From IMG/VR virus record IMGVR_UViG_3300006735_000020, positions 25,325 through 89,324 of that record: a stretch of DNA of 64,000 nt; one strand, written 5' to 3'. Below are positions 14,684-20,802 of the stretch, one piece after another. The position numbers and the translations under genes are program-made. The notes below the pieces were generated by a model that was given only the letters and a program-made list of their open reading frames with translations, made no database searches and had not been told where the DNA came from. The DNA is from a virus. The stretch's first letter is position 1. The number at the start of each line of letters is the position of its first letter.

Positions 14684-15374
14684 TAATTATAAAAGCTTTA
14701 CAGAAGGTACCGTATCTTAAAAATTCTTCTGTTTTAATATTTTTATTTTCTTCCAAAAATTCTTTAAATGCTAATCGTTCACCTTTATTCCTATCACCTT
14801 TAAAGTGAAACCAATCATCAAATAAAATTATACTACCTGGAACTAGTTTATCTCTAATTAAATTTAGTACAGTCTTTGTGCTAGTATATAAATCACAATC
14901 TATATGTACAATAGCAATTTTCGAAATATCATTAATTTCTAGATCTTCAAAATAGCCTGGTCTAATAATAGGTGTTTGTAAATTATAATGTGAAAAGAAG
15001 TTAACTACCTTCTCAGGCGTCACATCTTCACCATAACCAATTAAAGGGTGAAAAGAATGATTAACTTTAAAGACGCCTTTTTCCCATCTTGGATGCCCTT
15101 CTGAATCTTGTAACCCTTCAAAACTATCAAACCCATAAATTTTTCTATTTATGCTACTTTTTCTATTATGTTGATTTTCGTCTTGAAAGTATTGTTGATG
15201 AGAGTATGCTAGACTAGCTAAGCTCCTTCCCGTGTAACATCCAAACTCACATATATCACCTGGTACGAGTTCGTAGTTAATAAACCTCACAGCTTTTTTA
15301 AAAGCTTCATGACGAATATCACTTAATATCTGTTCGCGAAATTTATGACCAATTTTCATTATGTTATTTATCAC
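14673..15374 (-). CDS. TylF/MycF-family O-methyltransferase
   Basis: GDICEFGCYTG, GFDSFEGL, GYF, HIDCDLY and GSIILFDDW motifs. Confidence 0.88.
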   Translation of the reverse strand: MINNIMKIGHKFREQILSDIRHEAFKKAVRFINYELVPGDICEFGCYTGRSLASLAYSHQQYFQDENQHNRKSSINRKIYGFDSFEGLQDSEGHPRWEKGVFKVNHSFHPLIGYGEDVTPEKVVNFFSHYNLQTPIIRPGYFEDLEINDISKIAIVHIDCDLYTSTKTVLNLIRDKLVPGSIILFDDWFHFKGDRNKGERLAFKEFLEENKNIKTEEFLRYGTFCKAFIINET

Positions 15375-16479
15375 TGTCTAATAAATCTTCTAATCCAATC
15401 TCATCAGGAGCTTCTTCCCCTTCTTTATTACTATATGACCACTCATCTTTAATTCTTTCTTCTAACTTAGGTAAAATAGTTTCCTCCCAAAGCTTTTCAT
15501 CTTTACGCCAATTTTTATAATATCCTAACTTTTTACCATCTTCAAGTTGATAGGTAGCTCCAGTTTGTATCACTGCTCCTACTCCAACTGCTAAGTCCAC
15601 TAGTCCGTAGTACCTATCTAAACCAGTAGAGAAAGAAAGATACATTTCACCCTCTAGGTATTGTTTGATAAATCTATTTTTACGAGTTAAAGCTCTAATA
15701 ATAATACCAGAGTATTTTTTCTGACCAACAGCTAACTCACCATCAACAGTTTTACCACCATCCGATTTCATAGGCTTACGCGCTAATTGTACAGTTACTG
15801 ATGGTAGATATACACATGATTTACCACCCGGCATATTTTTTTCAATAGAAGGAAACAATGCAGTAGGGTCGTCGTATACATGGTTAGTACAGAGGATTGT
15901 AGTCTGAGTAATAGCACCTAAGTTGGTACAAGTTTGCATTAAGGTTTTCATAGCTCGAGCTTTAGTACCCATATCAGATGAAGTACTATCTTTACTCATA
16001 CGACTGAGTTCAAGTTCAGATTGTAAATTAGCAAGAGAATCAATAGCTACAATAAACTTACCTTCGAGTCCCTTCTCTTTAACAGAAGTAAGAAATTTAT
16101 ATAGAGCGTTTCTTGCTTGTTCAATACTAGTAGTAGGTACGTATTTTACTTTACTAATATCTAAACCGAGTCTCTCTGCACCATCTGGATCAATAGCATT
16201 TTCAGTATCAAAAATAACAGGAGTAAGACCTTCTTGCTGTGCTTTAGCTAGAATTTTTTGAACAAACAATGACTTACCGGTCATAGATTCACCAGCGAGC
16301 ATAGTTACTCTACCTTTAGGAATTCCACCATTAATTGAACCAGAAATAATCGCATTTAACACATATGATCCAGTATCAATCCATTCTCCAACATGACTAA
16401 GAGTATTATTATCGAGGTAGGTAGCAAAAGGGTTTACTTTATCTATAGCGTCTAATGCGCTAGCAATATCTTTATCCAT
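15364..16479 (-). CDS. uvsX: RecA-like recombinase UvsX
   Basis: DTGSYVLNAIISG, AGESMTGKS, FDTE, IDSL, DMG and TNHVY motifs. Confidence 0.93.
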   Translation of the reverse strand: MDKDIASALDAIDKVNPFATYLDNNTLSHVGEWIDTGSYVLNAIISGSINGGIPKGRVTMLAGESMTGKSLFVQKILAKAQQEGLTPVIFDTENAIDPDGAERLGLDISKVKYVPTTSIEQARNALYKFLTSVKEKGLEGKFIVAIDSLANLQSELELSRMSKDSTSSDMGTKARAMKTLMQTCTNLGAITQTTILCTNHVYDDPTALFPSIEKNMPGGKSCVYLPSVTVQLARKPMKSDGGKTVDGELAVGQKKYSGIIIRALTRKNRFIKQYLEGEMYLSFSTGLDRYYGLVDLAVGVGAVIQTGATYQLEDGKKLGYYKNWRKDEKLWEETILPKLEERIKDEWSYSNKEGEEAPDEIGLEDLLDSDK

Positions 16480-16487
16480 ATATAAGA

Positions 16488-16805
16488 TTATATTTTCTTA
16501 TATATGCTTTTCAACTGTTTAATTTGCTCTAATAGATGGAATACATTAGTTACTTTTATTCTATCTGTTTGTATTGTCATTGGATAGTTTAATTCTGTAT
16601 CAATACGTATACCTTCTACGTCACATTCCGGTGTAACCATATCATCTACAAAGTCATATAAACCTTGACTCTTGAGACTTTTATAGTGATAATCAATTAA
16701 TGGTCTAGTTGTCTCAACTACAACGTCAGCATCAACCATCATTGTTAGATACCTAAAGTATAGCCCCTCATTTGTGGTTAAATCAGCTATAATTATAAGA
16801 TTCAC
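16488..16805 (-). CDS. Hypothetical protein
   Basis: GTG start with TATAAATA (16811-16818) 5 nt upstream. Confidence 0.6.
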   Translation of the reverse strand: MNLIIIADLTTNEGLYFRYLTMMVDADVVVETTRPLIDYHYKSLKSQGLYDFVDDMVTPECDVEGIRIDTELNYPMTIQTDRIKVTNVFHLLEQIKQLKSIYKKI

Positions 16806-16823
16806 ACTTATATTTATAGATAA

Positions 16824-16847
16824 AAAAAGCCCCTTTCGGGGCTTTTT
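16824..16847. terminator. Intrinsic terminator (bidirectional-capable)
   Basis: AAAAAGCCCC-TTTC-GGGGCTTTTT; on the minus strand a GAAA loop followed by T7. Confidence 0.9.
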
Positions 16848-16850
16848 AAA

Positions 16851-17045
16851 GAGGTGGGTGAGAGGATTGTCTGGTTACCTCCAACTTTCAGTTAGGCAAG
16901 ATGCAGTTTCATCTTTTTACCTACTTGTACCCCGCATTATACACATAATAGTCAGTTGACCCTCCATGTAAGTCAGCAGTCCCCTTAACACTCTTGCTTA
17001 AAATGTTTATTCAGGCACACCCGGGTTTGGGCTAGCTAAGCCCAT
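16851..17045 (-). ncRNA. Candidate structured non-coding RNA (family unrecognised)
   Basis: GC-richer intergenic tract with several hairpins enclosed by GGGUG/CACCC, followed directly by a terminator. Confidence 0.6.
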
Positions 17046-17052
17046 TTAAATT

Positions 17053-17463
17053 TTAGACTGTATATGTTTTAATATATTCTTCTTTTTTCCTACGAGGTAC
17101 ATCTACCTCAAGGACTCCATTGATATAAGTGAAGTTAATCTTGTTAAGATCAAACTCTCTCCCGACTGAGAACGACCTATTATAGGTTTGTTCTTTTTCA
17201 CCATCATGAGCCTTAACCTTACGTTTAGCTTTGATGTAGACCTCACGTTGGTCAGTGTCTGTCGAAAGATCTAGATCATCTTTCGCAACTCCAGGTAAAT
17301 CGATCTGCACACTTAGTGTGTCTTCGTCTGAAGAAAATCGAACTTGATCACCTGTCTTGTAAACTTCTTCCAATTGATGAAAGACAGGTGTTAAGTTAAA
17401 AAAGCCATCAAAGGCTCTTTCGATTTCAGCAATTGGGTTATGTGTATATTTAGTTAGTTTCAT
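17053..17463 (-). CDS. Small heat-shock protein Hsp20
   Basis: IDLPGV, RSF and Y.NGVLEVDVP alpha-crystallin motifs; TAAATA 8 nt upstream. Confidence 0.9.
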   Translation of the reverse strand: MKLTKYTHNPIAEIERAFDGFFNLTPVFHQLEEVYKTGDQVRFSSDEDTLSVQIDLPGVAKDDLDLSTDTDQREVYIKAKRKVKAHDGEKEQTYNRSFSVGREFDLNKINFTYINGVLEVDVPRRKKEEYIKTYTV

Positions 17464-18225: not shown

Positions 18226-20802
18226 TTATTTACTAAACAAGTCAAAAAGTTCTACTGTAACATTCTCAGCTGGTTTGCGAATATTCCAACCCACACAATC
18301 ATAAAATCTTTCGATACCTTGAAACAAAATCTTTTCAAACATTTTATCATAATCAATCTTAAACGTATCTTTAAACTCAGAAGGGTAAGCATACTTAAAG
18401 CCGATACTATCCAATCCGTATTTATTGGGTTTTTCGACATACATATAACGAACTTTATCACCCGAACCTAACGATTCATACTTGTTTCCTGTATTAAGCT
18501 TATCTAAAAGTAGATTATAAAAATATGCAGACTTAACATGTATTGGCATACTTTTCACAGTATTAAATTCGTTACAATCTACAGCATACTTCTCGTAACC
18601 CTTTACTCCCATAACAAACGCAAGTTCTTCCGGAGATAAACCTTTAAATATATCATACGTCTCGTTGAGTATCTTATTAGTTTCAGTCAAAGACTGTGTA
18701 CTTAACATAGTCTCAATAATTTTTTTAGCATACGGCTTAATAGCATTAGGCATAGTAGTTCGAACTACTTCAACTCCTGTATATTTAAATTTATTTTCCT
18801 TAATACCCTCATCATCAAGGATATGCATAACGTATCTTTTCTTTTGCAAAAAGACGCCTACATCCGCTATACATTCTCGCTTAAACACAAACCTACTATC
18901 TTTTGATAGTAGGGATTTTTTAGCCCAATTCTGTACACCTTCATTTAAATAGTCCTCAATCTCTTGAATCTTATCATGTGTATCTTGATGTACATCATCT
19001 CCATCTAAAAAGTTTAAACCCTTGCTAACAAGAGGAGTAATAGAAACATACGACGAGTCCGTATCATTGTATACAATACACTCTTCAAGCTCATTATCAG
19101 AGATATCTGGAATCTCTTTTTTGATAAATTGCTTGATAAGCTCATTTGAATATTTAATGACAGCTTGCCCGGTAAGCGTAACAGAAGATGCGATATCATC
19201 ATCACCAATAGGAGCATTCTTATTACCCATGTAACCATAACACGAATTAATAAGAATCTTAATAACCATTTGTGATGTATTCAGTCTCTCTACTTCATAC
19301 TTCGCGCTAGTATATTCTGCAGAATCTTTTTTAAGTTTCTTAAGTTTTGTCTTAGCTTTAAAGAGGTCTTTCTTAATTTTAACACGTTGATTATAATAAT
19401 GCTCTAGAAACTCTGGTATAATACCTTTCTTCTTTTGAGTAAAAAGGAACCCAGCTTTAGACAGTGCACACTCTTCATCTTTTAGGAACTTTACAAAAGC
19501 AGGCTTATCAAGTTCAAACACTTTACCTGTTACATGCTGTATAATAACCTTATCATCTGTGGTCTTCTCTACTCTACCTACTTTAGTTTCTGGTGAAGTA
19601 TTCAAAGATATCATCACATTAGGATATAGAGAATTAGCATCAAACGACACAACATGATTTTTAAAACCTTGCTTAGGTTCTGCAACATACGCGCCCGGAT
19701 TTTTACCGGTATCAGCATTACGTAAAAATGTAGCAATAACCTCACCTCGACGCCTTGCTTTAATGCAAAGAGCACCGTTAATCACCTGAATAGTTCCCAT
19801 TGCTCCCTCAAGAGTCGTTAACCCAACATATGAGAGCATTCTCAATAAAGGAACATATTGAAGCTTTTCTTCTAGTCTTACTAAAAGGTTAACGTCTTGA
19901 ATGTTGTAGTCAATAAACGTATCCCAGTCTTCATCAGATAAAGTTGCAAGGTTAGTATCACCGTAATCAATCTTTCGTTGACCGAGCTCAACTTCACCAA
20001 TTGCATCCAACTTATAAGACTCACGAAGCTTTAAACAAAACCGTCTATATACATCGAGATAATCTAAACAAGCAATACCATCAATATAGTATCTTTTTAG
20101 ATCACGCCCAAACTTACCCTTTACAGCTCTAAAATGTACTCTACCTAGAGGAGATAATCTATCAACATAATCTTGCCCAAGTATACGTTCAATTCGATTA
20201 ATAATATAAGGTATATCAAAGAATTCAGAGTTCCAACCACTTAAGATATCCGGGTAGTCGCTTTCAAGATATTCAATGAACCGGATAAACATTTCACGTT
20301 CATCTCTACAATGAACATAGTTTAAATTATCAGCACCTTTACCATTATATGGTTTAATACCAAATGTATGAAACTTTTTACTAAAGTTATCATAACAAGT
20401 TATAACGTTTACAACATGAGTTGGGTCTTCTGGGTTAGGAAACGAATCTGGTGAATATGTCTCAATATCAAGTAAACACGTCTTAAGCGGGTTAGTACTA
20501 AATTCCGGTTCTTCGTTTTGCTGCCAGTATAAATCAAGCAAGAATTGCTGAACGGGCGGCATATTTTCAAATACACGCTTTATGTTTGAGTCACGAACAA
20601 ATCTAGATCGGTCAAAACTAGTATTAAATTTACGTTTTGATACCTTAGTCCCGTAGATAGATGTTTTATCACCGGCAGTATTTTCAACATAGAGATAAGG
20701 CTCAAAAGAGCATTCGTGCATTACACGCTTACCATCTTTATCCCAAGTAAATAAATTTACACAACGGTTTCTACCGTTATAAACAACATTACGATACGAC
20801 AT
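18226..20802 (-). CDS. gp43: Family B DNA polymerase (gp43)
   Basis: Exo DIET and GWNSEFFDIPY; SFDANSLYP; KILINSCYG; YNDTDS; KKRY. Confidence 0.97.
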   Translation of the reverse strand: MSYRNVVYNGRNRCVNLFTWDKDGKRVMHECSFEPYLYVENTAGDKTSIYGTKVSKRKFNTSFDRSRFVRDSNIKRVFENMPPVQQFLLDLYWQQNEEPEFSTNPLKTCLLDIETYSPDSFPNPEDPTHVVNVITCYDNFSKKFHTFGIKPYNGKGADNLNYVHCRDEREMFIRFIEYLESDYPDILSGWNSEFFDIPYIINRIERILGQDYVDRLSPLGRVHFRAVKGKFGRDLKRYYIDGIACLDYLDVYRRFCLKLRESYKLDAIGEVELGQRKIDYGDTNLATLSDEDWDTFIDYNIQDVNLLVRLEEKLQYVPLLRMLSYVGLTTLEGAMGTIQVINGALCIKARRRGEVIATFLRNADTGKNPGAYVAEPKQGFKNHVVSFDANSLYPNVMISLNTSPETKVGRVEKTTDDKVIIQHVTGKVFELDKPAFVKFLKDEECALSKAGFLFTQKKKGIIPEFLEHYYNQRVKIKKDLFKAKTKLKKLKKDSAEYTSAKYEVERLNTSQMVIKILINSCYGYMGNKNAPIGDDDIASSVTLTGQAVIKYSNELIKQFIKKEIPDISDNELEECIVYNDTDSSYVSITPLVSKGLNFLDGDDVHQDTHDKIQEIEDYLNEGVQNWAKKSLLSKDSRFVFKRECIADVGVFLQKKRYVMHILDDEGIKENKFKYTGVEVVRTTMPNAIKPYAKKIIETMLSTQSLTETNKILNETYDIFKGLSPEELAFVMGVKGYEKYAVDCNEFNTVKSMPIHVKSAYFYNLLLDKLNTGNKYESLGSGDKVRYMYVEKPNKYGLDSIGFKYAYPSEFKDTFKIDYDKMFEKILFQGIERFYDCVGWNIRKPAENVTVELFDLFSK

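Follow-up and report, generated by a model that had tools for sequence, protein, structure and literature searches.

The minus-strand interval 16851-17044 of the window, a term used here for the whole 64,000-nucleotide stretch of DNA that was analysed, holds a conserved, multi-stem RNA of 194 nt that is very probably a divergent member of the manA RNA family (Rfam RF01745) of marine T4-like phages. The RNA is a variant of a known family and not a new class; the manA core is kept, with a smaller domain specific to this class in place of the central four-way junction. Taken as a whole, the explanation preferred below, in which this manA-type RNA would be produced together with hsp20 as a discrete product, is given about an even chance of being right.

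Identification and classification

A permissive Rfam scan returned manA as the sole match in the window (RF01745, 16851-17044, minus strand, model positions 1-192 of 192, 43.1 bits, E 6.9e-10), and the RNA is present as a single copy in the 89-kb record. The score is below the RF01745 gathering score of 55.2 bits, so that a default Rfam scan misses the RNA, and the scan performed at gathering thresholds accordingly gave nothing in the region. A model of canonical manA built for this study scored the window RNA at 34.3 bits (E 8e-8). The preliminary description had proposed a structured non-coding RNA on the minus strand, belonging to no class that it recognised, and had stated that an Rfam match would make the element known rather than novel; the first part is upheld, and the full-length match to manA (E 7e-10, below the gathering score) decides the second in favour of a known family. 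Its choice of the minus strand agrees with the strand of the only Rfam match and with three G-U pairs in the P3b helix, and tRNA and tmRNA, which it had set aside, were both rejected as identities.

Relatives were collected by scanning IMG/VR with the core word GGGNGTGNCTGAATAA, and further loci were fetched via Hsp20. The scan recovered canonical manA RNAs, approximately 100 in number, together with a separate group of the same type as the window RNA, designated class V1. Among loci with an Hsp20 at least 90% identical to that of the window, V1 was present in 28 and a second class, V2, in four, while 11 had no RNA; in these 11, hsp20 still ends with a terminator, a different one. V2 carries GUGAGUGACGCGAAUAA ... 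CCUCCCUCAC and is quite different in sequence elsewhere. Two further classes were found, V3 (loci L239 and L246) and V4 (L251 and L252), and a degenerate two-anchor scan for more classes gave only V4 and one chance match. Scores against RF01745 were 125-195 bits for canonical sequences, 90 for V3, 69 for a 6FAB-like RNA (L254), 36.8-47.4 for V1 and V2, and 37 for V4; at 37-47 bits, the hsp20-linked classes are missed systematically by the curated Rfam threshold. A scan for the P9 motif in one genome per prokaryote species revealed no cellular copy and no clue to the host, the single match reading as coding sequence and having no manA features.

Three observations were made at loci of related phages. 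The contig IMGVR_UViG_3300030107_007843 (L243 and L169) combines an RNA-less hsp20 site with a truncated V1 RNA at the opposite end, after which comes the 105-aa ORF that is described below; the contig may be a mixed-strain assembly or contain a terminal repeat. In phages with a 65-71% identical Hsp20, 11 of 12 loci have a short conserved G-rich motif just after hsp20 instead of manA (..GGYMGGNGMRU.. about 15 nt ..AAAYWGGGGWYGGWUGGUGGG; L215:2900-2975, L216:1274-1349, L217, L218, L220, L221, L223, L226, and L228). This motif had no Rfam match in the three loci scanned (L215, L218, and L223), RNAalifold predicts no nested helix for it, and it could form a G-quadruplex or pseudoknot. Approximately 1 kb from hsp20 in one of these loci (L218:1816-1899, minus strand), a glutamine riboswitch aptamer (RF01739) was identified at 42.3 bits, above the cut-off.

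Secondary structure and covariation

The window RNA (all positions on the minus strand) begins with the P1 hairpin UGGGC-UUAGCUA-GCCCA (17028-17044), which is paired in 98.9% of cells in 19 relatives and has in its loop the palindrome UAGCUA (17038-17033), invariant in V1 relatives. Its stem UGGGC/GCCCA stands directly before the core, where V2 has GGAGGG/CCCUCC. The closing helix P2 joins GGGUG (17018-17022) to CACCC (16856-16860) and is followed by the tail ACCUC (16855-16851). Within it, the P3 module (16982-17017) consists of UGCCUGAAUAA, the hairpin ACAUUUU-AAGCA-AGAGUGU, and UAAGG, with CC/GG as the 2-bp P3a; it aligns with high posterior probability to the segment of highest conservation in the Rfam model, GUGaCUGAAUAA...UAAgG, and thus contains the conserved UG-N-CUGAAUAA ... 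UAAGG internal-loop module of manA. On the 3' side, P8 (16890-16925) comprises an outer stem, AGUAGG/CCU-A-ACU, which is paired in 90% of cells and shifts register between subtypes, and an inner hairpin, AAGAUG-AAACUG-CAUCUU, which is invariant and aligns to the ACUG-loop hairpin of the manA model. The P9 hairpin GGAGG-UAACCAGACAAU-CCUCU (16861-16882) corresponds to the GGUA...AAUCC hairpin of the model.

Between P3 and P8 lies the class-specific central domain (16926-16981), which is unaligned or gapped in both the Rfam model and our own. The four-way junction P4-P7 of manA, with its GUGGUG (L5) and ACCA (L7) loops, is absent, and neither motif occurs in the centre of the window RNA; since the variant rows are gapped in the helices of the central junction, the domain has been replaced. 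Candidate pairings in the replacement are CUGC/GCGG (16979-16976 with 16935-16932), UACAU/GUGUA (16970-16966 with 16944-16940), and GGUC/GACU, all of which are 100% compatible in the relatives, via one-sided changes only.

A covariance model built from 45 diverse canonical manA sequences was used to align canonical, V1, V2, and V3 RNAs. In the resulting 51 distinct rows, 97.8% of cells pair, compared with 78% in shuffles and 42-52% with slid partners, and changes on both sides occur in 22 of 32 pairs, a count matched by none of 500 shuffles. This alignment was fitted to the model and therefore favours the structure; the swaps between classes are nonetheless clean and two-sided. P2, which has the form GGGNG/CNCCC around the core, is 100% paired in the 51 rows from four classes, with three of its five pairs changed on both sides (AU:29/UA:22, GC:48/UA:3, and GC:49/AU:2). 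The pairs of P3b covary between classes, with four pair types at one position, and in P9 two pairs differ from canonical manA by swaps of both bases (UA:25/GC:24 and AU:25/UA:23). P2, P3b, and P9 of the variants are thus kept by compensatory changes relative to canonical manA. A plain MAFFT alignment of V1 and V2 analysed with RNAalifold had yielded fragments only, owing to a one-base shift of V2 in P3, and was replaced by the model-guided alignment.

All of the stems listed in the preliminary description were found in the window sequence, and GGGC/GCCC, GGGUG/CACCC, AACAUUUU/AGAGUGUU, AGAUG/CAUCU, and GAGG/CCUC are kept in 19 of 19 distinct close relatives. The inner stems fared less well, with UGACUU/GGGUCA, AUUAU/AUAAU, and UAGGUA/UGCCUA paired in 89.5%, 72.6%, and 87.7% of cells, respectively; they are not kept across subtypes, and two of the inner hairpins proposed are not conserved. 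Within V1, the fold proposed there pairs 92.0% of cells and an alternative composed of CUGC/GCGG, UACAU/GUGUA, GGUC/GACU, and AGUAGG/CCU-A-ACU pairs 98.7%. The V1 alignment (20 sequences, 95% identity) has no two-sided covariation and neither fold beats shuffles in it; its variation is too low for covariation to separate the two, and helix enumeration within V1 yielded so many compatible stems that none could be singled out. The central-domain fold of V1 is consequently provisional.

Folding energy, which the preliminary description had named as a check, was unexceptional (z = -1.29 for the minus and -0.01 for the plus strand) and neither supports nor refutes a functional RNA; the evidence for the RNA is its conservation and cross-class covariation. 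The unremarkable single-sequence energy and a 61-aa ORF (16774-16959, plus strand) that overlaps the region are the points in favour of a chance GC-rich spacer, or of a small protein-coding gene on either strand, with no functional RNA. Such a reading is hardly credible, given the mean column identity of 95% across 20 relatives, the full-length covariance-model match (E 7e-10), and the compensatory changes with respect to three other classes; the Rfam match, the cross-class covariation, and the V1 alignment already refute it. Its protein-coding form is ruled out by single-base indels in the V1 alignment that break any reading frame.

Canonical manA loci

Weinberg et al. (2010, PMC2864571), who described the manA family, considered it a riboswitch candidate that probably acts in cis and located it ahead of mannose/fructose, nucleotide-synthesis, ibpA-chaperone, and photosynthesis genes. 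Of 83 distinct canonical upstream regions, 53 have an extended -10 element (TGnTAnnnT) at a fixed distance, 20-32 nt ahead of the closing helix (13.5% expected); canonical manA RNAs therefore seem to stand at the start of their transcripts, which would begin with P1. Among 78 canonical loci, an ORF starts no more than 100 nt downstream in 43, seven of which also have a terminator-like hairpin; the conserved GACCUAAGAUGCAAC hairpin follows in 18, a terminator only in seven, and a tRNA gene located 5-19 nt downstream in three (L007, L028, and L042). Genes downstream of canonical copies include those for gp32, transaldolase, a 2OG-Fe(II) oxygenase, pyrimidine-dimer glycosylase, and DUF6561, and the arrangements in cultured phages are pstS-manA in P-SSM4, regA-manA-purL-hsp20 in P-SSM2, and gp23-manA in S-SSM5. 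No Hsp20 was detected near canonical manA with the divergent Hsp20 of the window as query. A cis-regulatory role is possible for the manA family, as about half of the canonical copies lie 11-50 nt before an ORF.

Outside the canonical group, the V3 copy at L239:3112-3470 (90 bits) is located between two tRNA genes with 1-nt spacers, and L246 is similar; spacers of this length imply that a discrete RNA would be released by tRNA processing.

Two side observations concern annotation at canonical loci. The GACCUAAGAUGCAAC...GGGCAGAUGGUC hairpin occurs 5-30 nt after the canonical RNA (for example in L020, L017, and L113), often with a U run, and may be the 'abiF' sRNA reported beside manA in phage S-CREM1 (PMC9964418). 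In GenBank, the manA RNA is called a 'hypothetical protein' (T4-GC 428) in P-SSM4 (PSSM4_169.1, L255:2551-2724) and S-SSM5 (SSSM5_127, L257:2505-2711); a structured RNA has probably been mistaken for a gene there.

Locus and transcription context

The window comes from a virus record of 89 kb in IMG/VR. Its minus-strand gene order in this region is gp43 DNA polymerase (18226-20802), two small ORFs, hsp20 (17053-17463, a 136-aa small heat-shock protein; Pfam HSP20 PF00011, E 3.9e-13), the gap holding the RNA, a 105-aa ORF with a GTG start (16488-16805) that is taken from the ORF listing and has no Pfam family match, uvsX/RecA (15364-16479), a TylF-type methyltransferase, and QueC. Among the cultured phages compared, those with the best-matching polymerases are T4-like cyanophages, and the identity to gp43 of the window is only about 32%; on this sequence comparison, the phage is assigned to a deep-branching, uncultured lineage of T4-like marine myoviruses. 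Neither blastn of the RNA region nor tblastn of Hsp20 had a match in 50,697 phage records, so that a cultured relative was absent for context. The gap (16806-17052, 247 nt) is the largest stretch of the window uncovered by ORFs of at least 80 aa, and its GC content is 0.43-0.44 compared with approximately 0.33 in the flanks, both in agreement with the preliminary description.

The hsp20 stop codon is 8 nt ahead of the window RNA and 5-27 nt ahead in all relatives, and neither an extended -10 element nor a late-promoter box was found upstream of the RNA in 16 distinct upstream regions; co-transcription with hsp20, as had been suggested, is most likely. The position in a 5'-UTR behind its own promoter, a usual feature of manA, was thus not found for this RNA. 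Immediately behind it is the strong terminator reported earlier, at 16847-16824: the intrinsic terminator AAAAAGCCCC-GAAA-GGGGCUUUUUUU (16822-16847, minus strand; consensus scan, 10 pairs and a U tract) begins a few bases past the closing helix and has no overlap with the RNA. In a thermodynamic prediction for the full context, its five G-C pairs have probabilities of 0.999-1.0 and all alternative partners fall below 0.001, and its stem and loop vary compatibly among relatives. A TATAAATA box with the T4-type late-promoter consensus (16811-16818, minus strand) stands between the terminator and the next gene and is a putative late promoter; (N)ATAAATA-like boxes occur in the same spacer of several RNA-bearing relatives. 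Upstream, hsp20 is the constant neighbour in 32 of 32 RNA-bearing loci, and nothing downstream is constant, the 105-aa ORF being next after 13 of 28 V1 loci and absent after 15.

With regard to the 105-aa ORF itself, its GTG start is 5 nt past the perfect TATAAATA box (window 16803-16818, minus strand), a spacing that points to a late message with almost no leader. Compared by eye with L164, the ORF shows only synonymous differences in its first 22 codons, so that the N-terminus is coding.

The missing promoter, the terminator free of rivals, the box following it, and the variable next gene argue against a leader or attenuator. They bear in particular on an orphan riboswitch or attenuator, in which a ligand aptamer, with the terminator as its expression platform, would control whether transcription continues from hsp20 to the next ORF and uvsX, and which accords with the proposal of manA as a riboswitch candidate (Weinberg 2010, PMC2864571), with the classic layout in which a terminator comes directly behind a complex conserved fold, and with the terminator-like hairpins within approximately 40-80 nt of about 30% of canonical loci. 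That reading is nevertheless quite unlikely, because the terminator is separate from the RNA and is predicted to form with a probability of about 1.0 and no competing pairing, so that the model gives no sign of an expression platform; because the RNA-less relatives also have a terminator after hsp20, a late-promoter box follows it, and the downstream gene varies; and because some manA copies are embedded between tRNA genes. In addition, the literature searched reports no ligand or function for manA 16 years after its description.

The promoter, terminator, and neighbour data are in better accord with transcription of the RNA as a tail to hsp20. A tail could also act in cis, as a 3'-UTR element: its fold would keep 3' exonucleases away from the hsp20 message, or would attract a factor controlling the stability or translation of that message. 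The constant hsp20 neighbour in all 32 loci, the RNA without its own promoter, the position of manA near hsp20 in P-SSM2, and the ibpA chaperones listed among the associated genes (Weinberg, PMC2864571) are in keeping with this. The terminator hairpin already gives 3' protection, however, 11 close relatives manage without the RNA, and in other phages the same fold is found 5' of unrelated genes or flanked by tRNA genes, which makes a cis-acting element unlikely.

Proposed mechanism and self-association

The mechanism favoured here, tentatively and at a little less than an even chance, is that of a stable, possibly self-associating RNA co-produced with hsp20. We infer that the RNA is the minus-strand 3' part of the hsp20 transcript, ending at the intrinsic terminator directly behind it, and infer its ends, stability, and processing likewise. 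It would be a discrete stable product made together with hsp20 and no switch for the downstream gene; it would also behave as an exchangeable cassette, of which close relatives carry one of two forms or none. As with the manA RNAs examined by cryo-EM, its role may be structural and involve self-association.

RNAs of the manA family assemble in vitro into octamers, decamers, and a 60-subunit T=1 cage built of pentamers, held by the kissing loops L5-L7', L8-L9', or L3-L8' and, in the cage, L1-L1'; these oligomers were obtained at high RNA and Mg2+ concentrations and with family members other than the window class (Ren et al., bioRxiv 10.64898/2026.07.01.735769; cryo-EM). The L5-L7 contact corresponds to the invariant UGGU/ACCA pair of canonical sequences, which the automatic structure had nested as a never-varying helix 5. 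These canonical kissing loops are absent from the window class, and this counts against manA-like self-association.

Candidate loop-loop contacts in the window RNA are the P1-loop UAGCUA, CUG in L8 with CAG in L9, and the central UACAU with GUGUA; as sequence motifs they are hints, not proof, of interfaces. Palindromes of at least 4 nt occur in 11 of 18 distinct P1 loops (25% expected) and of at least 6 nt in five of 18 (4.6% expected), and every non-canonical manA class has a palindromic P1 loop. The L8-L9 match is 3 nt in the window class and 6 nt in V4 (CUGAUU/AAUCAG). Family-wide, L8-L9 complementarity averages 2.83 compared with 2.62 +/- 0.08 (maximum 2.92) for a permuted-partner null, a weak excess obtained with automatic loop calling that is unreliable for the variants.

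A more specific proposal, judged unlikely, is that RNAs of the hsp20-linked class assemble on their own, late in infection, into a ring- or cage-shaped particle. If so, the P1-loop palindrome and class-specific loop pairs would hold the assembly in place of the canonical UGGU/ACCA contact, and phages would be exchanging 'RNA capsule' cassettes, with V1, V2, and the RNA-less state as the alternative alleles. That manA-type RNAs recur beside the oligomeric chaperone Hsp20 would then be explained by a function common to both, such as the sequestration or protection of cargo during infection.

Significance

Rfam files manA as a cis-regulatory element and riboswitch candidate. The window class bears on that filing, as it falls systematically below the cut-off, lies at the 3' end of a gene before a constitutive-looking terminator, and is gained, swapped, or lost among near-identical phages. 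Together with the tRNA-flanked copies and the cages seen by cryo-EM in 2026, the V1 context gives manA the appearance of an independent structural RNA more than that of a gene switch. The class further presents the manA core as a portable module with an exchangeable middle, and supplies natural variants with different interface loops for asking whether assembly is biological.

Comparison with known systems

Canonical manA (RF01745) resembles the window RNA in its length of approximately 190 nt, in the order of its parts (P1, a 5-bp closing helix, UGNCUGAAUAA...UAAGG, the ACUG-loop hairpin, the GGUA..AAUCC hairpin, and a CCCACC-type tail), and in its occurrence in marine T4-like phages with one copy per genome. 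The two differ in score (125-195 bits for canonical manA and 43 bits, below the gathering score, for the window RNA), in the four-way junction with invariant GUGGUG and ACCA loops, which is replaced in the window RNA, and in the extended -10 that canonical copies usually possess and the window RNA lacks. The window RNA, moreover, is situated behind hsp20 and before a terminator and not in front of a gene.

The closest look-alike is the 6FAB type, represented here by L254:10625-10796. 6FAB is an accepted manA member without a four-way junction (10.64898/2026.07.01.735769), and this type, like the window RNA, has no P4-P5-P6-P7 junction. It shares with the window RNA a G-rich P9 stem (GGAGG in 6FAB and GGGGG in L254), a CAG-containing loop, the tail ACCCACCUU, and a P1 loop with a UAGCU/AGCU palindrome. 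L254 nevertheless scores 69 bits, above the cut-off that the window RNA does not reach, keeps ACCA and UGGUGG centrally, and comes from a GC-richer virus with no hsp20 nearby. Of the RNAs in this comparison, only 6FAB has been shown to form oligomers.

To our knowledge, no biological role is known for the particles of ROOL, GOLLD, or the manA cage. ROOL and GOLLD are much longer than the window RNA, and assembly of the window class is putative. With these RNAs and the manA 60-mer cage, the comparison is of the 'works like' kind only, the likeness being that of a phage-associated structured RNA with loops suited to symmetric RNA-RNA contacts.
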